From: Torpedo marmorata
Taxonomy: Eukaryota
Assembly (NCBI GenBank): GCA_977017645.1
Contig: OZ360222.1
Span: forward strand, 270,196,001 to 270,260,000
Length of the DNA stretch: 64,000 nucleotides
Reading direction: 5' to 3'
The notes below the pieces were generated by a model that had not been told where the DNA came from, did no database searches, and worked only from the letters and a program-made list of their open reading frames with translations. The position numbers were made by a program, and so were the translations under genes. Position 1 is the stretch's first letter; each line of letters opens with the position of its first letter. This document shows, one piece after another, positions 5,312 to 47,300 of the stretch.

Positions 5312-8300
5312 GTAAGCCGGACATCCCCTCACGTGCACTCTTCCTGACACACTCCATGGTGCTTCCACTCTGCTGCTCCTGATATTGGGAAGGAAGGTTG
5401 CCTGTTGGTTATAACATATATAACAATTACAGCACGGAAACAGGCCATTAGGCCCTTCCAGTCCGCACCGAACCAAACATTCCTATCTAGTCCCGCCTAC
5501 CTGCACCCTGCCCATAACCCTCCACTTCCTTCTCATCCATATACTTGTCCAACTTTTTCTTAAATAATAAAATTGACTCTGCCGCCACTACTTCTCCCGG
5601 AAGCTCATTCCACACCGCTACCACTCTCTGAGTAAAGAAGTTCCCCCTCATGTTACCTCTAAACCTCTGCCCCTTAACTCTTAGCTCATGTCCTCTTGTT
5701 TCAATCTCTCCTATTCTTAATGGAAATAGTCTATCCACATCCACTCTGTCTATCCCTTTCATAATCTTAAATACCTCTATCAAATCCCCTCTCAACCTTC
5801 TACGCTCCAAAGAATAAAGACCTAATCTGCTCAATCTCTCCTTGTACTCTAGATTCTTAAACCCAGGTAACATTCTGGTAAACCTTCTGATATGCCTATC
5901 AATGACTTACGCAAGGCAAGAAGTACTGGAGATCAACAGGCTTTTATTAACAGTAATTCAGGCCAGGGCCAAGCTACATTAGACCTGTCCATACCTGCTG
6001 GACTGTCCCGGAACTGAGGGTGGAGTCAGTGGCTCAAGGCCTTTATTCCAGGGGAGAGGGGGAGGAGTCACCGGGACAGACAGACAGGACATGATCAGGC
6101 TTGCCCCTAGCCCATAGTATACAACATATACAACAGTGGTACAACAGTGGTTTACCACATTCACCCCTTCTTTTAAAACAAGTCCGAGGGGGGGGGGGCG
6201 CGAAGTGGCCACCGTAATTAATAAATCACACAGTTATCCCGCGTGCACACAAATATATACAAATATTATCTACATAGTAGGGTTGCCGCAACCATCACAT
6301 CTACAGGTTGAGTCTATCCGGCGGTCGGGCTCGCCGCTGCGACCTACGTAAGACCTGCGGTGACGGCGCGGGCGATGATGGTAGTTGTGGTTGTGGAACG
6401 AGGGTGGGGGGGTCCGGGTCCGGGTTGCCTCCTGCCTGGCTTGTGGCTCGTCCAGCTCTGGCTGAGGCGTTGTACCCGCCGTGCTGGGAGGCGGGGAGGG
6501 CGGAGGGAGCAGCTGTGACCAGGCGTTCCCACTGTCGGGGACCTCTTCCAACGCTCCTGCAGGCGCCAGGTCCCGTATTGATACCGTGTCTTCCCGCCCG
6601 TCAGGGAAGACCACGAATGCGTACTGCGGGTTCGCATGGGTCAGCTGCACCCTCTCGACTAAGGGCTCGTACTTGCTACTCCGAAGGTGTTTGCGGAGTA
6701 GCACCGGTCCCGGGGACGTCAGCCAGGCAGGGAGGGTAGTTCCGGTGGTCGATTTTCTAGGGAAGGAAAAGAGGCGTTCGTGAGGGGTAGTGTTTGTGGA
6801 GGTACATAACAGGGATCGTATAGAGTGGAGGGCGTCCGGGAGAACCTCTTGCCAGCGGGCCACTGGCCACCCTTTTGATTTCAGGGCCAGTAGCGTAGCT
6901 GTCCATACAGTGGCATTCTCCCTCTCCACCTGTCCGTTTCCCCGTGGGTTGTACCCCGTGGTTCTACTGGTGGCGATGCCTCGGGTCTGCAAGTACTGCC
7001 GCAGTTCCTCACTCATGAACGCGGATCCCCGGTCGCTATGGACATAGCAGGGGAACCCGAATAAGGTGAATACCTGGCGCAGAGCTTTAATAGCCGAGGC
7101 CGCCGAGGTATCGGGGCAGGGGATAGCAAAGGGGAACCGCGAGTACTCGTCGATAATATTAAGAAAGTACACATTGTGGTTCGTGGAGGGAAGGGGGCCC
7201 TTGAAGTCGATACTGAGACGTTCAAAAGGGCGGGTGGCCTTGACCAGCTGTGCCTTGTCGGGGCGGTAGAACTGTGGTTTGCATTCCGCACAGACTCGGC
7301 AGCTGCTGATCATGGTCCTGGCCTCTTCCAGGGAGTATGGCAGGTTCCGTGACTTCACGAAGTGAAAGAGCCTGGTAACTCCTGGGTGGCAGAGGTCGTC
7401 ATGTAGGGAGTATAACCGGTCGATCTGCGCGCTGGCGCACGATCCCCGGGATAGAGCATCGGAGGGCTCGTTGAGCTTCCCGGGCCGGTAAAGGATGTCG
7501 TAATTGTAGGTGGAGAGTTCTATTCTCCACCTCATGATTTTATCATTTTTGATTTTACCCCGCTGCTGGTTGTTAAACATGAATGCGACGGAGCTCTGGT
7601 CCGTCAGCAGGGTAAAATGTTTTCCGGCGAGATAGAGCCTCCAGTGCTGAATAGCCTCAACTATGGCCTGGGCCTCTTTCTCTACCGCGGAGTGCCGAAT
7701 TTCGGGGCCTTGCAGGGTGCGTGAGAAAAACCCTACCGGTCTTCCCACCTGGTTGAGGGTAGCAGCCAGTGCAAAGTCCGATGCGTCACTCTCCACCTGA
7801 AAAGGTACCGACTCGTCCACCGCGTGCATCGCTGCTCAGGCGATGTCCCCTTTTATGAGGTCGAAAGCCTCACGTGCCTCCGCTGCCAGGGGAAACTTGG
7901 TGGACTTGACGAGGGGTCGGGCTTTGTCGGTGTAGTTTGGGACCCACTGCGCATAATACGAGAAGAACCCAAGGCTTCGTTTAAGGGCTTTGGGGATATG
8001 GGGAATCGGAAGTTGGTCGGGGTCGGGTCCAATCACCCCGTTCTCCACGACGCACCCCAGGATAGCGAGTCGGGTAGTCCCGAACACGCATTTCTCCTTG
8101 TTATATGTGAGGTTCAGCGTCTTGGCCGCCTGCAGGAACTTCCGAAGGTTCCTATCATGGTCCTGGCGATCATGACCGCAAATGGTAATGTCGTCCAGGT
8201 ACGGGAAGGTGGCTGTTAGTTTGAACTGGTCAACGATCCTGTCCATCTCCCGTTGAAACACAGATACCCCGTTTGTTACCACGAAGGGGACGTGCAGGAA

Positions 8301-11300
8301 ATGGAATAACCTGCCGTCCGCCTCGAAAGCGGTGTACTCTCGGTCTTCCCGGCGAATCAGTTGCGTGAACCTGTTAATGGTTTGACTGTAGTCCACCACC
8401 ATCCGGCTCTTGGCCCCGTTCTTCACTACGACTACCTGAGCTCTCCAGGGGCTGTTACTGGGTGCGATGATCCCTTCCCCCAGTAGACGATGCACCTCCG
8501 CTTTAATGAATGCCCTGTCCCCTGCACTGTATCGCCTACTTTTAGTTGCCATAGGCTTACAGTCAGGGGTCAGGTTGGCGAAAAGTGACGGGGATTGGAT
8601 CTTCAGCGTGGAGAGACCACAGGTAGTTTGGGGCGTATTGCTCAAATACTGGGGGTTAGTCACTACGATCGAAGGGTGGGGCCCATCATAGTGCATGGTG
8701 ACGCTTCGCATGTGGCTTTGGAAGTCCAGTCCCAGCAATACAGGAGCACACAAACGGGGCATGACTAACAACGAAAACCCCCGATATTTCGTGCCCTGTA
8801 CCACTATGTTCGCCACACAACCCCCCCCGGATGTCTGTTGTGTGTGTTCCAGACGCCATGGCCACCCTTTGGCTTACCGGTACAATTGTGAGGCCACAGC
8901 GCTGGACGGTGTCCGGATGAATAAAACTTTCAGTACTACCTCTGTCGAACAGGCAGGTAGTCTTATGCCCCTCAACTAATATGTCAATCATCGATCTGGA
9001 CAGCTGATGGGGCGCGCTCTGATCCAGCGTCACGGATGCCAGGGTCGGGACGTAGTCTTGATCCGACGTGCCGTCTTGATCCGACGCTGACGAAGATGGT
9101 TGCCCCCGTAGGTCGCACGTGTCGCTGCAAGATGGCGGCGCCGGAAGTGCTGGAAGTGCCGCGGTGAGGCTATAAAATGGCCGCGCCGGAAGTGACGGTG
9201 TCGGAAGTGCCGGGGGCCAAGATGGCCACCTCCATTCCTCGCACGAGGTCACCGCCGGAAGTGACGACAGGTAAGATGGCCGCTCCCTTACTTCGCACGC
9301 GGCGCTGCTCAGACCCGCACGCGGCTTGGAGCGGCAGGCCTTAGCGTAGTGGCCTTTCTTGCCGCAGCTAGAACAAGTCGCGTCTCGGGCCGGGCAGCGT
9401 TTGCGTGGGTGTTTGTCGAGCCCGCAGAAGTAACACTTCTCGGGCTCCCGGGTAACGGCCGCGGCGGTTAACTCACGGATGGCGTTGGCGGGCTCCCGGG
9501 TAGCGGCGGTGGCGGCCAACTCACGGATAGCGGTGGCGGCGGCGATCGGGTCGTGGTAGACGGCAGCGGCAGTCACGTCGCTTGCAGAGCTGGCGGTTGG
9601 GGCGATCCACGAGGCAGGCTGCGCCTGCATAGCGTCAGAGTCCCTGAGCGCAGCCTCCAGTGTGAGGGCCGTCTGGACGGTAGATTTAAGGGTCAGGTCA
9701 GCTTGTTCCAGCAATCGCTGGTGAATGTAAACCGACCTGAGCCCCATAATAAACGTGTCCCTTGCCAACAGTTCAGCGTGCTGCTCAGCCGTCAGGGCTC
9801 GGCAATCGCACGCCCGCACCAGTAGCTGCACGTCCTGGATTTACTCGGAGATCGACTCTCCGGGTCGCTGGCGCTGTTGCGATAACCTGTGCCTCGCGTA
9901 GACCGCGTTCACAGGCGTCAGGTACAGTCTTTTAAGGGCTCCCAAGGCATCATTGTACGTTTGACAGTCTCTGACGGTGTTATACACCCGTGGGCTTACC
10001 CTAGACATGAGGATGTCGAGTTTGTCTTCGTCGCTGACCGCTCTGGTCGACCTCAGGAACAGTCTGAAGCAGCGTAGCCAGAGTTCAAAGGTACTTGCGG
10101 CGTCTTGGGCCAGGGGGTCGATGTCTAGCTTGTCTGGCCTCAAAAAATTCTCCATCAGACCTAAAACTGTTAATAAAATTGATATGCCTATCAATTACTT
10201 ACGCAAGGCAAGAAGTACTGGAGATCAACAGGCTTTTATTAACAGTAATTCAGGCCAGGGCCAAGCTACATTAGACCTGTCCATACCTGCTGGACTGTCC
10301 CGGAACTGAGGGTGGAGTCAGTGGCTCAAGGCCTTTATTCCAGGGGAGAGGGGGAGGAGTCACCGGGACAGACAGGCAGGACATGATCAGGCTTTCCCCT
10401 AGCCCATAGTATACAACATATACAACAGTGGTACAACAGTGGTTTACCACACCTTCTCTGCACTCTCTCCACTCTGTTGATATCCTTCCTATAATTTGGG
10501 GACCAGAACTGCACACAGAACTCTAAACTAGGCCGCACCAACGCCTCAAAATTTATACCTAAAGACTGCACCTTCCTAACTAACCTTCCATGAGGTACCT
10601 TATCGAAGGCCTTACTGGTCCATATAGACAACATCCACTGCGCTACCCTCATCCACATTCCTAGTCACCTCTTCAAAAAATTCAATCAGATTGGTCAAAC
10701 AGGACCTTCCGCTCACAAATCCGTGTTGAGTGTTCCTGATCAGACCCTGTCTATCCAGATATTTATAAGTACTATCTCTAAGAACTTTCTCCATTAATTT
10801 ACCTACCACAGACATCAAACTTACAGGCCGATAATTGCCAGGCTTCCTCCTTGAACCCTTTTTAAATAACGGAACCACATGCGCAATACGCCAATCCTCC
10901 GGCACTATCCCCATCTCTAATGACATTTGGAAAATCACCGTCAGAGCCTCTGCTATTTCCTCCCTTATTTCTCTCAAGGTCCTGGGGAAGATCCCGTCGG
11001 GTCCCGGAGACTTATCCACCTTTATATGCCTCAAAAGCCCTAACACTACATCTTTCGTAATCACTATATTCTCCATATTTACCCAATTTGCTTTTTTTAT
11101 GATCCAAGGCTCAGAGACATTGGCTCAAATCCACCCAACCACAAGGCTCAACTCATCTGTCCATGGTGGAAATTATTAAAATACTGTAACATCATAAAAA
11201 GACAGACAGTTGAATTATATCACTTTGGGACAGAAAGTTACTGTCTTAACCCATCTGGCCTATTTGTAACTCCAAGTCAATAATAACAATGTCAATTCTT

Positions 11301-38300: not shown

Positions 38301-41300
38301 ATCTCAGATGCAGGAGGAGGAGAGTGAGAGTGTCAGGATCACCCGTGTGGCAGTGAGACAATGAGAAGGTCAGAGGAGTTTAGCTGGGTGGTGTTTGGGG
38401 AGTTGAAGAATGCAATGTTGTGTCTAGTGAATAATAAAAAGAAAGTTGACTTCATGGTGTGCTGAAAGAAACGAGTGAGTGCATTCTTTATTTGTTTGTA
38501 AGCCGTGGTAAATCAGTGCCGTTACACTCTCATAACTTTACTTTGGCCATCTCCTGTAATATAAACAGAGCTCCACCTGAACTGTGACCATGACACTGCA
38601 GCCACCTAATTCACTCCCGTTAACACTTCGTTTCAGTACTGAGACATACAAACAATGAACTCAAAAATCTTTGTGCTAAATTAAACAAGTTTTTTTATCA
38701 TTCTTTTTTTTTAGGAAATAATTAAAAGTGTAGGGGCTTCCCCTCAGTTCCCGTGAAATTATTATTGGCGGAAGATAAACAACCAGATTACAGACAATTG
38801 TCAAAGAAACTTCCTGTGATCTAGAGTATTCTGTCAGAAATCATACCATTTTAATAGTGTAACACAAGGAACAGGGGAAGGCCATACCACCTCTCAGGCC
38901 TGTCCACCATTCAGTTGGGAGAGAGGCGGTACAGATATCGGGTTCTGTGTTAAATGATTTTACAATCTTCCATTAACATGTCTTAGCTGTAACAGCTTGC
39001 CGTGCGCATGTACTGCAAAAGAAGGCTTGTGGTACTCCATTGTACTCCACTACAAATGGCGGCGCTGCCGGAGCCACTGTAGCGGCAGCGCTGCCGCTGG
39101 TGCGGACCCGCGGGGAGCTACAGAGCGGAGATGCAGCGCTCCTGCGTGGTCCAGCCGCCCAGTCGACTGCCGTCGGCTCTGCACAGGCTTTGAGCCTGTT
39201 GAGGGAGCCGACGGTGGTTTTATTTGAGATCCCGCGACCGCGGGGTCTGCGCCCAAGATGGCAGCGCCTATTAATCGGCAGCAGCCACGAGGGGCTGCAG
39301 ACTCCGGGGAAGCAGAGGACTGGAGCAGGGCACCAGAGGACGTAAATATCAACCCCCCATCTGAGAAGGAGAAGCAGAGGAGACGACCCACGGGACGGTG
39401 ACCACGGCGGCAGAACAGTGAGGAGCTCTGAGGCTGAAGGACCAGTGCATGCGGCGGGCTGCTGGCGACTCGAGGCAAGGAACCCATGGAGGCTGTGGGC
39501 TGCTGGAGACTGCTGTTGGGAGACTCACGCCAGGCTGCGGACTACTGGAGACTGGCACGAACTGGCTGGAGGAGTACCAGGTATCAGAACCTGGATGCGA
39601 GGGGGTGCCGAGGGCGCCGAAGGGTTCCTGACCGTGTCGGAGGTTCGGACGCCGAAGGGTTCCTGACCGTGTCGGAGGTTCGGATCTGGAGCTCGGGTTG
39701 CTGATGGTTTGGACTGGACTCTGTGTGGCTGCGGAAGCGCTGGAGGCGAATCTATGGACACTCGGTGACTCTGGGGGGACTCTCTTTTGCTTCTCTTTTT
39801 CTGACTGTAAGGAATGTTAGAGGCGCTTAGGCGAATCTATCTGCTTATCAGCAGGCAAAAAGGAATTTCATGGAATATGACACTGCCTTATTACTATGAC
39901 AATAAATTGAATCTTGAATAATTCTTGAAAAAAATTTTGAGGTATTAAGATAGGTAATGTTTGAAAAAGGTATTGTGTTCTTGGAAATATATTCATCTTT
40001 ATACAATTAACTCTTCCAACTAAAGTTAAAGGCAGATTAATCCATTTTTAAAAATCTTCATCAATCTTTTTAAGTAATGGTAAATAATTCAATTTACATA
40101 ATTTTTTCAAATTACTATCTGTACGTATACCTAAGTATTTAATACCTTCTTTTGGCCATTTAAACTGAGTACCTCTCTGACAATGTGTATAATCTCCTTT
40201 TGTTAATGACATAATTTCACTTTTATCCCAATTTATTTTATAGCCCGAAACTTTTCCATATTCCTCCAATTGAATATATAGTCTTTGTAAAGATATCTCA
40301 GGGTCAGTCAAATATATTAGGACATCATCTGCAAATAAACTAATTTTATGTTCTTCTTAACCTACCCTAAATCCCTTAATTTGTAAATCAGAGCGAATTA
40401 TCTGGGCAAGTGGTTCTATTGGCTAAAACATATAAAGCAAGATAAAGGACACCCTTGTCGACTAGATCTTGACAAATTAAATGGCATAGACACTTGTCCA
40501 TTAGTTACTACTTTGGCTTTAGGGTTATTATATAATGCTTTAATCCAATTTAGAAAATTAATCCCAAATCCAAATTTCTATAATACCATAAACAAAAAGT
40601 CCCACTCTAATCTATTAAATGCTTTTTCTGCATCTAGAGCAACTGCAACACTCAATTCACCTCTTTTCTGAGCTAAATGGATAATACTTAATAATCTAGC
40701 TACATTTTCTGAAGCTTGCCTTTTTTTTTTACAAAGCCTGTTTGGTCCATATTTATTAGTTTAGGTAGCAATTTGTTCATTCTATTTGCTGAAATTTTTG
40801 CAACAATTTTATTGTCTGCATTTAATAATGAGATAGTGTAGCGGCTGCAAACGGCAGCGCTATCGAAATAAAGTACAACCACACGGTTGGAGGGTGAACC
40901 ATTAAGTGCTTTATTATTTGAATAGCTCACGCTGTTTGCCTTGGGACGACGCACTTCCGGTAGCCCGGCGCGTCGGTGCCAGGAAGTGACGTCAGCACGC
41001 TGTGGAGCCACTGCCTGCCCAGCGTGGTGACATCCCCTAGGCAACGCGCGTCGCTAAATGCGGGCTTCTCCTGAGAATGGAAGGGGGGCCCGCGCCATCT
41101 TGTGCCGACCAATTGGGGCGGCGATTCGGCTCGTCTAACCGCGCGGCCGCTCGGCCCGCTACACCACCCCCCCCCCCCCAGAATCGCTGCCACACTTTGA
41201 GCCAGTTCCCGTACTGTCTTTAGGCGGGTGGTCTCTGTGTCTGACTTGGGGAAAGGGGACTGGTTGACCTGAGTCCAAATGTGCTGCCTTATGGCGGTCA

Positions 41301-44300
41301 ATGGTAAACATGTCCTGCCGCCCGCCAATGTCCAGGGTAAAAACGACGCCGTCGCGATGTAGTACCTTGAATGGGCCTTGGTAGGGGCATTGCAGGGGTG
41401 TTCCTTGCTGTCCTCTGTGGACAAAAACAAAATTGGTGGACTGTAGGTCCGCGGGGACGTGACAGGGCAGAGCACCGTGCCGGGAAGGTGGCGGAGGTTT
41501 AGGCTTACCCATCTGCTCCCTCAAGCGGTGGAGGACATCTAAAGCACTGGGTTGCGGGCCTGGAGGGTTGAAGTGAATGTCTCCCGGGATGGTGAGCGGG
41601 GAACCGTAAACTATTTCGGCGGACGATGCTGGTTGGTCTTCTTTCGGTGCTGGGCGGATTCCCAACAACACCCATGGGAGTTCGTCCATCCAGTTCAGGC
41701 CTTGTAGTCGGGCTTTCAGGGCTGCTTTCAGATGGCGATGAAAACGTTCGACAAGTCCGTTTGCCTGAGGATGATAGGCCGTGGTGTGGTGTAACTGGCT
41801 GCCGCAGAACTTGGCCAGGTTGGACCAGAGCGAGGACATGAACTGGGCTCCTCGGTCTGAGGTGATGTGGGTCGGGACGCTGAAACGTGCGACCCAAGTG
41901 GACATAAAGGCTCTGGCACATGTCTCTGTGTCACACGTGGGCAGGGGCACGGCTTCTGGCCAACGGGTAAAACGGTCATCTATTGTGAATAAATAGCGCA
42001 TACCTTGGCTCATGGGGAGTGGACCCACGATGTCCACGTGCACGAGGTCGAAACGGCGTTGCGTCGGGGCAAAGCTCTGGAGCGGGGCCTTGGTGTGCCT
42101 GTGTACTTTGGCACGTTGGCAGTCCAAACAAGTCTTAGCCCATAGGGTTACGTCGCGGCGGAGACCGTGCCACACGAACTTGTCGGACAGCAGGCGGACC
42201 GTGGACCTTATCAAAGGGTGCGATAGGCCATGAATTTGGTCGAACACCCGCCGTCGCCAGGTCGCGGGTAGGATGGGTCTGGGGAAACCTGTGGATATGT
42301 CGCACAGCAAAGTCGGGCTCCCCGGCGAAGGACAGAAATCGCTAACCTTCAGGCTGGTGATGGCAATCCGGTAGGCCTGGATGTCCGCATACCCGCCTGG
42401 TCTTTTGCCATTTGGGCAATGTCGAGTCCTCCGGAGGTGGTGGAAATGGCCGGTCTGGACAGAGCGTCGGCCACCACGTTGGACTTTCCTGCGATGTGGC
42501 GAATGTCCGTAGAATACTCTGAAATGTAGGAGAGGTGTCGTTGTTGTCTCGTGGACCATGGGTCTGAGACCTTGTTGAGGGCATGCATCAGTGGCTTGTG
42601 GTCTGTGTAGGCGATGAAAACCCTTCCCTCTAACATGTACCGGAAATGTCGTATTGCCAGGTACAGGGCCAACAGCTCACGGTCGAACGCGCTGTATTTG
42701 AGTTCTGGCGTTCGAAGATGTTTGCTGAAGAAGGCCAGGGGGCGCCACTGCCAATCGACCCACTGCTCAAGCACTGCGCCGACCGCTCTGTCCGAAGCGT
42801 CTGTTGTAAGGGCCAGTGGGGAGGAAGAGTCAGGATAAGCAAGAAACGTGGCCTCCGCCAGTGCCGCTTTGGTTGCCTGGAATGCTTCAACGGCTTGGAT
42901 GTGTGGGATGGGATATCTGTCGGGGACCGTGACGTCATTGAGTCGTCTGTAGTCACCACACGGGCGCCAACCGCTGGATTTCTTCTGGACCATGTGAAGC
43001 GGGGACGCCCAGGGGCTATTTGAACGGCGGACAATTCCCAACTCTTCCGTGGCGGCAAACTCGGTCTTGGCCAGGAGAAGTTTGTCCTGCGGGAGGCACC
43101 ATGCCCGTGCGTACACTGGTGGTCCGGTGGTTTCGATGTGGTGCTCCACGCCATGTGCTAGCTTAGTGTCGTGGAAATTGGGGGCCAACAGTGACGGGTA
43201 CCTGGCCAGTAAAAGGGCATATTCATTGCTGTCTGGAGTGTGGATGCCCAACATCAAAAAGGAACGTTGCCGTAGTGTGAGGGGGTACGACTGGAACGTG
43301 GTAGCGTTGACCAAACGGCACCTGATCATGTCTACTAAAAGCTCACGTGCCCGGAGGAAATCGGCTCCGAGTAGCGCTTGTCCAACGGACAAAATTGTAC
43401 ACTCCCAGTGGAAAATAGTTTTGGCGGCATGGATTTTGACTAGACGGGTGCCTAAACTTGGGATGGAAGAACCGTTGGCTGCCTGTAGGGGGAGGCCCTT
43501 GGCGTTGTGCTTGAGCTTGAAGTACGTCGGCGGGATGAGGCTTATCTCCGCACCCGTGTCAACTAGGAAATCTCTCCTTGTCCGCTGGTCTCTTAGATAA
43601 AGTAGGCCCTTATGTGTGCCAACCGTTGAGGCCACTATCGGCGGCTGGCCTGTTCGTTTCCCGTCGCCGCGCTCGACTTGGCATTGGGGTACGAGCATGG
43701 GGGAACGCACCGCCAGGCGTTACAGCCCCATCTGCGGTGGTAGAAACAGTAATCGCTCCGCTTGTCTGAGCGCTCGTGGCGCTGTGGTTGGGCCACGGCT
43801 ACTGCTGGCGGACCCGGCGGGGAGGCCAACCCTGGTACCTGGGTTGAACTGGAGGCACCGACGGCGTAGATCGGTTGCGCATGTATGGAGCTCTGCTGCG
43901 GGGTGCGGAAAAGTCTGTCTGCTTCCTTGGCTACCATGCTCAATATTGCCGAGGAAACGTGCACTGGTAGCTTGGAGAAGAACAGGGCCTCGAACAGGAA
44001 ACAGTTTGTGTGCCCGTCTGCTAAAGCCACCATTTCATGCATGAGCTCGGAGGGGTTTCTGTCGTCCAGGCCTTGCATGTTTAGGATGCGGACGGCATGC
44101 TCGTGCCGGCTGAGCTCTAGGGAGTCGAGGAGGAGACGCCGGAATTGTTCGTACTTACGCTCCATTGGAGGATTTTCCACGAAGGAGCTTACTTTGGCTG
44201 CGGTGGCGGCGTCCAAGGCGCTGACGACGTGCCAGAACTTGGTGTCTTCCGAGACAATGCCTCTGAGCTGGATCTGTGACTCGGCCAGATGTAACCAGTT

Positions 44301-47300
44301 CTTGGGCTGGTTGGCCCAGAAGGGCGGCAAATGTACGCCCACAGCGTTGGTCGCAGCCGTTGCGACTGGAGCGGTAGCAGCATTCTGCATTTCGATGCGC
44401 TCGAGGTGGGTTCCAAAAACGTTGGAACCGGCTGCAAACGGCAGAGCTATCGAAATAAAGTACGTCCACACGGTTGGAGGGTGAATCAGTAAGTGCTTTA
44501 TTATTTGAATAGCTCGCGCTGCTTGCCTTGGGACGACGCACTTCCAGTAGCCTGGCACGTCAGTGCCAGGAAGTGATGTCAGCACGCTGTGGAGCCACTG
44601 CCTGCCCAGCGTGGTGACGTCCCCTAGGCAACGCGCGTTGCTAAATGCGGGCTTCTCCTGAGAAGGGAAGGGGGGCCCGCTCCATCTTGTGCCGACCGAC
44701 TGGGGCGGCGATTCGGCTCGTCTAACCGCACGGCCGCTCGGCCCACTACAATAGGTCTATAAGATGAAGGTTTTAAAGGATCTCTATCTTTTTTAGGGAT
44801 CACTGTAATTATTGCCATCGAAAATGTTTCTGGAAGAGTATGGTTCTCCATAGCCTGATCTAATACTTGCATAAACATAGGAATTAATAAATCCTTAAAT
44901 TCTTTATAGAATTCAGGTGGAAATCCATTTTCTCCAGGTGATTTATTACTCTGTAAAGAAACCATAGCTTCCCTTACCTTTACCTCAGTAAATGAGGCAT
45001 TAAGTTCTGTCTGTTCTTCTAAATTTAATCTAGGCAATGTTATCTGTGATAAATAATTATTTATCTTATTTTCATCTCTTAGAGACTCTGAACTGTATAA
45101 TTTTGAATAAATTTTTTTTAAAGATTCATTTATTTATTGAGGTTTATATGTAGCTACATTATTATCTTTTTTAATTGCATTAATTATTTTTGAAGTCTGT
45201 TCCGCCTTTAATTGTCAAGCTAATACCTTTTGTGACCTCTCACCTAATTCATAATATCTTTGTTTCGTTCTTACTATTGCTTTCTCAGTTCTATACGTTT
45301 GTAATGTTTTATATTGAAATCTTTTATTAATAAAATGTTTACGTTTATCTTCAGAAGTACGGATTTGTAGGTCTTTTTCCAATACTGTAATTTCTTTCAA
45401 CCCAATTATAAAGTTAGAATAAAAATCAAGAAAATAAATCATTGCAACAAGTCCGAAGCAGCTGCAAGTGACTGGGCTTCAGGAAGATTCCGAGCGAATT
45501 CCTCTGCTTGAGCAAAATTGGTGAAGAATTTATTCTGCTCTCCTGGGACAAAAATCTTCAAAGTTGCAGGGTGTCGAAGGACAAATTTATATCTTTTATC
45601 ATAAAGAATCTTCTTAACTGGATTAAATTCTTTCCTTCTCCTCAAAAGATCTTCACTCATATCGGGATAGAATAAAATTCTATCCCCTTCCCATTCCAAT
45701 GGACCATTTCTATCCCTCGCTCCTTTCAACGCCAAACTTAGAACTTTCTCTCTGTCTTGATAACGCAAGAACTTTATCAATAAGGAACGTGGCTTTTGGT
45801 TAGGGAGAGGTTTTGGTCTCTTTCCACTTCAATTGGATTTTTTTTTTTTTTTTATATTTTATTTAAATTTTTAAATCACTGATTACATAAAATAATTTTG
45901 CATATAATTCTTAAAAAATACATGTGATTACATTTTCTCCCCCCCCCTTCCCACCCTCCCCTCCCTAGCCCCTATATCCCCCTATTCTAAATTTTAAAGT
46001 AAGATAATAAAAAGAAGAAAAAGAAAAAGAAAAGATAGAAAAATAGAGTGAGGAGTCAATAAACTTAAAAACTAATATACCTTAGAGGTTATTTCGCCAG
46101 CGGATCTGATATCCAGAGAATTTACAATGTTAAACCCATAATCCTCATATATGGGCCCCAAATTTTCAAAAAAGAATGATATTTATTTCGTAAATTATAA
46201 GTAATTTTTTCTAATGGTATACATGACCGTAACTCTGCATGCCATCTCTCTAGATTTAAATCAACATCCGATTTCCAAGTAATAGCTATACACTTTTTCG
46301 AAACTGCTAATACTATATGTAAAAATTCTACTTGATACATATTTAATCTATTTCTGATACTAAATTTTTTAATATCTCCAAATAAAAATAACATAGGAAC
46401 TTCAATTGGATTTTGAAATTTTTCTCCTAATACATTAGGAATCCATTGTTGAAAGAAGTTAATCACATTCAGACCTTCTTTTCCTTCTGAAAGACCTACT
46501 ATTTTAATATTATTTCTTCTACTAAAATTCTCCAAAATATCAATTTTTTCAGTTAGTTTTTGATTTACTGTAATTAAGCCAGTAATTGTATCTTCAGTGT
46601 TAGTTACCCTGTCTTCAATATATTGTACTTCATCCTGTAGTCCAGTAATTCTTTCTTCTATTTTCTCCAGTTTCCTCTTCATTTAATTCACATCTTCCAG
46701 TACTTTATTAGTTTCTGCTTTCATTTCTACCTTTCCACCTTTATATCCTTTTTTCATTTCTCTTTCCATTACTTTAATCTGCTGCATTATCATTATGGAT
46801 AATTCTTCTATCTTAGTTTGAGGATTAAATTTAATTTCTTCCATTACCTCCTCTTCCTGTATCTCTTCTTCCTCTTCATCTTCATCTTCAGCTGATGAGC
46901 CTCTTCTGGAACCCGACTCTTCCTCCGGTGTTGGTCGAAGACCCCGACTTTTCAGTCGGTTGTTGCACTCCCAGTGGTGCGTTGGGTTTCGTAGTGGCGG
47001 TTTCTCACGCATGCGCGGTTCACTTCCTGGTTCCCCTCCGACGCCATCTCTCCGCAGTTGCGGTTGGGAGACGCCGGTAGAGGTCCCTTCTAGAGGATCA
47101 CCAAGTCGGGAGGCAGCATGAATTCCAGCTCCATGTTTTGATGTCGAGGTAGGCCTCACTTCTTTTTCTCTTCCCGTCGGGTTCCATAAGTCGCTGTAGT
47201 CACTTTTTCTTTTTTTGGAGGCATTTTGGAAGTAAAGTAAATATGTTTAAATATTGTTTAAAGATATTTTTAAGGTTAGAACAGTACTTATTTAGAACTT

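Follow-up and report, generated by a model that had tools for sequence, protein, structure and literature searches.

A conserved LTR-leader duplex points to Tf1-type self-priming in an animal Gypsy lineage placed outside the sampled chromoviruses

In the window (the whole 64,000-nucleotide stretch of Torpedo marmorata DNA that was analysed, in whose numbering all positions are given), a decayed Gypsy LTR retrotransposon was distinguished, the leader of which carries the exact complement of a segment of its own LTR. The resulting duplex is retained, in the same register and with different letters, in 37 of 41 relatives from public contigs and in all 30 host copies compared, and it very probably serves Tf1-type self-priming throughout this Gypsy lineage, with the transcription start and the primer cut predicted from its position. 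The original prediction had read the junction as Tf1-like, and that reading is strongly supported by the lineage-wide covariation in the register of a primer site.

The element (4564 bp, 4.56 kb) lies on the minus strand, as do all of its features given below. It interrupts a LINE fragment, presumably CR1-like by its motifs, and is flanked by a 5-bp target-site duplication, GAAGG (10452..10456 on the 5' side and 5883..5887 on the 3' side). The 272-bp 5' LTR (10180..10451; TG...CA) shows 3 differences from the 272-bp 3' LTR (5888..6159). The gag-pol remains (6270..10155) comprise Gag with two CCHC knuckles, protease, reverse transcriptase (RT), RNase H and integrase, with no chromodomain; they are broken by stops at 9841-9843 and 7836-7838, a frame change in the protease region and a gap of about 35 residues in RT. 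A polypurine tract (6160..6174) ends in AA directly before the TG of the 3' LTR, and relatives have the same ...GAA/TG end.

A search of the host genome (6.2 Gb) with the LTR-leader junction returned 1652 candidates, of which 40 were scored and found to be 99-100% identical. The closest named proteins are from rays and sharks, and relatives at about 60% occur in whipworms, crustaceans, a sea anemone and corals; no relative turned up when viral contigs were scanned with the element or with its alignment. The relatives carry one ORF of about 1200 aa, the LTRs of the lineage measure 150-270 bp, and 69 of 79 full-length relatives have two CCHC knuckles. Several further observations were made on these sequences: (i) in members of the clade, the first residues of Gag resemble the last residues of the polyprotein, with a P-D-R-L-D-L-like motif at both ends (P0002, P0004, P0001 and P0104); (ii) some members are inserted within Gmr1-type elements with a TGG primer site (L041, 3094-10696; L076); (iii) in L046, L050 and L073 the 3' end is followed by LTR, leader and Gag start, as from one-LTR circles or collapsed tandem copies; and (iv) nine contigs in bacterial genome bins (L110-L118) carry these animal retrotransposons, probably as host contamination.

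The leader arm of the duplex, the putative primer-binding site (10166..10178, 13 nt), begins 1 nt past the LTR end, after a single spacer nucleotide (A, 10179). Read from 10178 to 10166, it is the exact complement of 10246-10234 in the LTR, and the coordinates given for both arms in the original prediction were confirmed exactly. The leader had also been described as lacking a TGG-type site, and TGG is indeed absent from the first 24 nt beyond the LTR. For the 13-mer the expected number of chance matches in the LTR is 2.5e-6, and 0 of 5000 shuffled LTRs gave more than 11 bp with the leader, so none attains 13; a chance origin of the duplex is excluded. Folding of the minus strand of 10160-10260 gave -28.8 kcal/mol (z -4.26; none of 200 shuffles was as stable) and left the LTR end unpaired, as had been foreseen. 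The LTR arm (10234..10246) is the predicted self-primer and RNA 5' end, a role suggested by register and covariation, which also place the putative primer cut between 10234 and 10233.

In the same fold, an inner R/U5 stem-loop (10186..10233; 10233-10224 pairing with 10195-10186) is stacked on the duplex at the predicted cut. The self-pairing claimed for U5 holds in part: the inner stem is kept with G-U pairs in the host families, and it is not a lineage-wide feature. The last of the UACUU/AAGUA pairs fails as a family feature, resting on an A at 10196 that is private to the 5' LTR (the 3' LTR has C), with C in 28 and T in 1 of 29 sister copies at the matching position. Both arms of the duplex are common to all 29 of these copies, which were selected by similarity to the junction and hence provide no test of its conservation. 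The LTR arm includes an AATAAA (10235..10240), which in the 3' LTR likely acts as the poly(A) signal. A second AATAAA (10334..10339) precedes the arm by about 90 nt, in what is predicted to be U3. An extra AATAAA is also seen in host families (L192 and L203 among them) about 85-100 nt upstream of the duplex, and in two host sister subfamilies the distance is 84 nt. Such an upstream signal, if used in the 3' LTR, would cut off R, and it is presumably skipped.

Conservation was examined in 88 relatives fetched from public contigs, 41 of which extend upstream of the Gag match. When the longest inverted repeat was sought blindly in these 41 loci, 31 yielded a perfect duplex of 11-19 bp, 3 yielded one of 9-10 bp and 7 yielded none. 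Inspection by eye shows 11 bp with one G-U in three of those seven, which belong to a single family, and nothing in the other four. Among random windows from the same loci, 13 of 600 attain 11 bp, some of which may be the duplex itself. The LTR ends are set by target duplications in 11 of the 41 loci. Two more families, on circular-looking contigs, have duplexes of 13 and 11 bp. In L042, scored as duplex-free, the end and the start of the contig share a 12-bp inverted match by eye, which may be a truncated further case.

For comparison by position, 23 family representatives were anchored on the longest inverted repeat (two by hand) with the four duplex-free loci left out, and the per-position counts therefore lean towards pairing. 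On this basis, 251 of 253 cells in the 11 innermost pairs are Watson-Crick, and pairs 12-15 are Watson-Crick in 20, 20, 18 and 11 of the 23 representatives. The leader begins in the register CA+1 in 22 of the 23. The arm ends in ...AAA/RCC, with RCC after the arm in 20 representatives, and a helix begins at the predicted cut in 15 families. Of the 23, 17 carry A at position 11 and 20 carry G at position 10, within a TT-AG-TT motif that we take to resemble the initiator element consensus; the family of the window's element departs from this at position 11, where it has T. Most families begin Gag only 16-50 nt past the LTR. In the host's Gmr1-type elements, which served as a control, a TGG site is present and such pairing does not exceed 6 bp.

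Within the host, 30 copies of sister families were picked from 150 scored loci by Gag protein alone. Perfect duplexes of 14-15 bp are present in 26 of them, and the remaining 4 have one mismatch or wobble. In an alignment that includes the window copy, 99% of duplex cells are paired, with 47 two-sided changes vs. 1 one-sided change, where cells count sequences and not events; pairing ends sharply outside the duplex, and the inner U5 stem has 1 two-sided vs. 17 one-sided cells. Placed on a gag tree, the duplex changes among the 30 copies amount to 9 two-sided events, some on branches only 0.01-0.03 long, and 4 one-sided events, all private to terminal branches. Nine events over seven outer positions correspond to about 1.3 two-sided changes per site, and the tree length is 1.3-1.4 (1.8 if one long, probably spurious end branch is counted). 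Arm and primer site seem to change together at about the rate of single substitutions, a rough comparison because gag is under selection.

Ten copies were fetched whole, eight of them with a readable LTR pair. Two-sided variants stand in both LTRs of L190, L202, L201 and L187, and also of L208, where the 3' LTR bears one additional private change. In L197 the mismatch in the arm is confined to the 5' LTR, and in L181 and L195 only the leader differs. Inherited two-sided and private one-sided changes are, we infer, what re-copying of the primer site from a retained self-primer would produce. Strong selection on the RNA helix in very large families could alternatively have fixed the two-sided changes. 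Retroviral primer sites are restored by copying of the tRNA, and the Tf1 primer is reportedly not removed, according to the title of a paper. The base 3' of the 14-bp leader arm was also seen to vary (L180-L209), being C or T, or G with a matching C in two copies; start-site heterogeneity or a cap-templated base may possibly account for it.

In the self-priming cycle that we propose, the RNA would start at the arm, near 10246; this start is predicted from the TT-AG-TT motif, by which, in most families, +1 would lie eleven bases upstream of the cut. The first 11-14 bases of the RNA would pair with the leader, and cleavage by the element's RNase H just past the A-run (10234/10233) would release the primer. 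RT would then copy U5 and the remaining R and jump to the RNA 3' end, strand transfer being mediated by the part of R past the cut. Plus-strand synthesis would re-copy the primer site from the retained primer, so that one mutation would suffice for arm and leader to change together. Since the window's own family has T at position 11 and covariation in the host families reaches positions 13-15, the predicted primer need not always be 11 nt long. A primer taken from the arm in the 3' LTR was dismissed on theoretical grounds: a cut there would remove the R needed for strand transfer. Under self-priming, the duplex would predict the transcription start to within a few bases.

The duplex could instead hide the poly(A) signal of the 5' LTR while something else primes, a function that the original prediction had named as an additional or alternative one. 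A canonical hexamer does lie within the arm in 13 of the 23 families, the window's included, and the leader adjoins only the 5' LTR copy of it. However, the other 10 families keep the duplex with neither AATAAA nor ATTAAA in the arm (3 of them have a hexamer downstream, in the loop), and therefore masking is at most secondary. It also needs neither the CA+1 register nor the near absence of G-U pairs, and it leaves the lineage with no primer site at all. We regard masking as the sole function of the duplex as very unlikely; as the general reason for the duplex it falls away, and in the 13 families with the hexamer the self-priming duplex may, as a by-product, conceal the 5' signal too.

It is highly improbable that the leader binds a host RNA in trans (a tRNA half, an internal tRNA segment or another small RNA) and that its match to the LTR is secondary. 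Seven leader bases could, we presume, match the anticodon loop of tRNA-Asn, and half-tRNA priming exists in Copia lineages, as given in the sections available of PMC6317226. Against this, a leader free of TGG offers no match to a mature tRNA 3' end, and the leader varies freely between subfamilies of one genome, each time in step with its own LTR, and no fixed host RNA could keep pace with it. In a comparison with host tRNAs, the best match among those of normal length was 5-6 nt, the set being small (33 tRNA calls, 9 anticodon types, with the tRNA of the control missing). We likewise give little credence to the duplex being a packaging, dimerisation or translation-control structure with no part in priming: the Gag start is so near the LTR in most families that start-codon accessibility could depend on the helix, but such a role leaves unexplained the fixed register at the LTR end, the AAA/RCC junction and the absence of any other primer site.

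The position of the self-priming candidates among Gypsy elements was studied with 65 extracted RT-RNase H rows, 48 of which entered a quick tree and 32 a mixture-model tree after near-duplicates and partial rows had been dropped. Chromoviruses were labelled by a Pfam chromodomain or kinship to rows with one, Gmr1 by an integrase preceding RT and CsRn1 by a Gag with the CHCC motif; the labels Mag-type and errantivirus were given from sequence motifs, and the trees hold no named reference elements (Tf1 and sushi-ichi are absent). The lineage forms one RT-RNase H clade (100/100) on a long branch at an unresolved base, and it is excluded from the chromovirus rows (100/99). Grouping inside Tf1/sushi, which would have made the priming a known mechanism, was addressed by topology tests: nesting with 7 fish, amphibian and fungal chromovirus rows was rejected (p-AU 0.015), and a sister position to chromoviruses was compatible with the data (p-AU 0.51). 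Nesting in the Mag-type sample (four rows of one subgroup, labelled by sequence motifs) was rejected as well (p=1e-5), and the best tree places the lineage sister to the Mag-type rows at 28/74.

The assignment to a Mag-type lineage made from the window alone stands for Gag, the median profile score of which is 106 bits vs. Mag-type proteins and 14 vs. chromoviruses. It does not extend to RT-RNase H, which forms a deep clade of its own, or to the protease, which scores 24 bits vs. chromoviruses and 5 vs. Mag-type. The double zinc knuckles described in Gag are visible, and the window's ORFs are free of a chromodomain: a Chromo domain search found no match in them or in three full-length relatives, with a positive fish control, and none is listed for 120 relatives. 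A search for DUF7083 gave no match. The CsRn1 clade was rejected as a home for the element, which has CCHC knuckles instead of the CHCC Gag motif and is separate from CsRn1-type rows in the trees. By its predicted mechanism the lineage works like Tf1, but it is not a member of Tf1/sushi as judged from these RT-RNase H sequences.

Host searches by chromovirus-domain families returned Gmr1-type elements, and those with a fish chromovirus RT query returned CsRn1-type elements; chromovirus-type elements were absent among the best-scored host matches, where Gmr1, CsRn1 and this clade are abundant. The window itself holds a CsRn1-type LTR element (40840-44751, minus strand; CHCC Gag, DUF7041, 4-bp duplication CTAT), in which a short palindrome (about 44410-44430) replaces the 5' LTR end and the primer site, the 3' LTR end being normal.

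Self-priming is treated as a hallmark of Tf1/sushi chromoviruses, and Repbase entries are said to call some animal Gypsy families self-primed. Among the parts available of PMC6317226, PMC4600332 and PMC2864245, it is described as proven for Tf1, proposed for Tf1/sushi and Tcn1, and predicted for the plant Copia lineage TAR. Our literature search, with subscription papers and Repbase outside its scope, returned no report of self-priming in the present clade; a term search of PMC2774666 gave no match, and the clade is not named in the portions available of PMC8220671 and PMC2678813. Tf1 and Tf2 of Schizosaccharomyces pombe and the Tf1/sushi chromoviruses (Tj1, Tosmo1-3, sushi-ichi and Tcn1) share with the lineage an LTR-complementary primer site beside the LTR CA and the lack of a tRNA site (PMC7175516, PMC4600332 and PMC10085805, in the parts available). 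The Tf1 primer, according to the accessible text of PMC7175516, is 11 nt long and is cut by RNase H; the lineage resembles it in a core of about 11 bp and, in 15 of 23 families, in a helix beside the predicted cut. The lineage differs from Tf1/sushi in lacking a chromodomain, in its Mag-like two-knuckle Gag, in an RT-RNase H outside the chromoviruses, in a putative primer that, in roughly half of the families, shares sequence with the poly(A) hexamer, and in a mechanism that is here only predicted. The Tf1 'pretzel' includes a third helix (PMC10085805, part of the text); its counterpart, formed with sequence 3' of the primer site, reached p<0.05 in 1 of 23 families and is unsupported.

Mag elements use tRNA sites. 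The lineage is like the Mag lineage (A, B and C clades: Mag, Gulliver and SURL) in its Gag, the two CCHC knuckles, the 5-bp target duplication and the lack of a chromodomain, and unlike it in an RT-RNase H not nested in the sampled Mag-type proteins and in its protease. Cigr-1 has 245-bp LTRs, one 3.6-kb ORF, a capsid like that of sea-urchin SURL/Tgr1 and an RT nearer to gypsy/sushi, to which the short LTRs, the single ORF and the mosaic domains of our lineage conform. On this general description the lineage is probably the Cigr-1 clade. The Cigr-1 clade is known from Ciona intestinalis and also from molluscs and annelids, as far as the available parts of PMC6238403 and PMC8556966 tell, and one published supplement files Cigr-1 under 'Mag' with no subclade. 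For the plant Ty1/copia TAR lineage (Houba and Osr-1), self-priming outside Tf1/sushi has been predicted in PMC6317226 from LTR complementarity of at least 10 bp starting 0-5 nt past the LTR; our lineage has such complementarity, and TAR belongs to another superfamily and kingdom. TAR shows that repeated origins of self-priming have already been proposed.

A more far-reaching interpretation, which we put forward only tentatively and hold to be rather doubtful as a whole, is that this Gypsy clade, widespread in animals from corals, sea anemones and whipworms to crustaceans, sharks and rays, is non-chromoviral and undescribed as a self-priming one, and that it acquired self-priming independently of Tf1/sushi on a Mag-type capsid; its primer site would be rewritten from its own primer each generation, and thereby be free to drift and to escape control by tRNA fragments. 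The many young subfamilies of the host would offer a population-level test of primer inheritance. Programs for which a tRNA site is obligatory will overlook this clade or label it wrongly. A second Gypsy clade with self-priming across many animal phyla would mean that this mechanism arose again or is older than the chromoviruses, and the clade would bear on the proposal, made in the part available of PMC3601003, that hairpin priming preceded tRNA priming.
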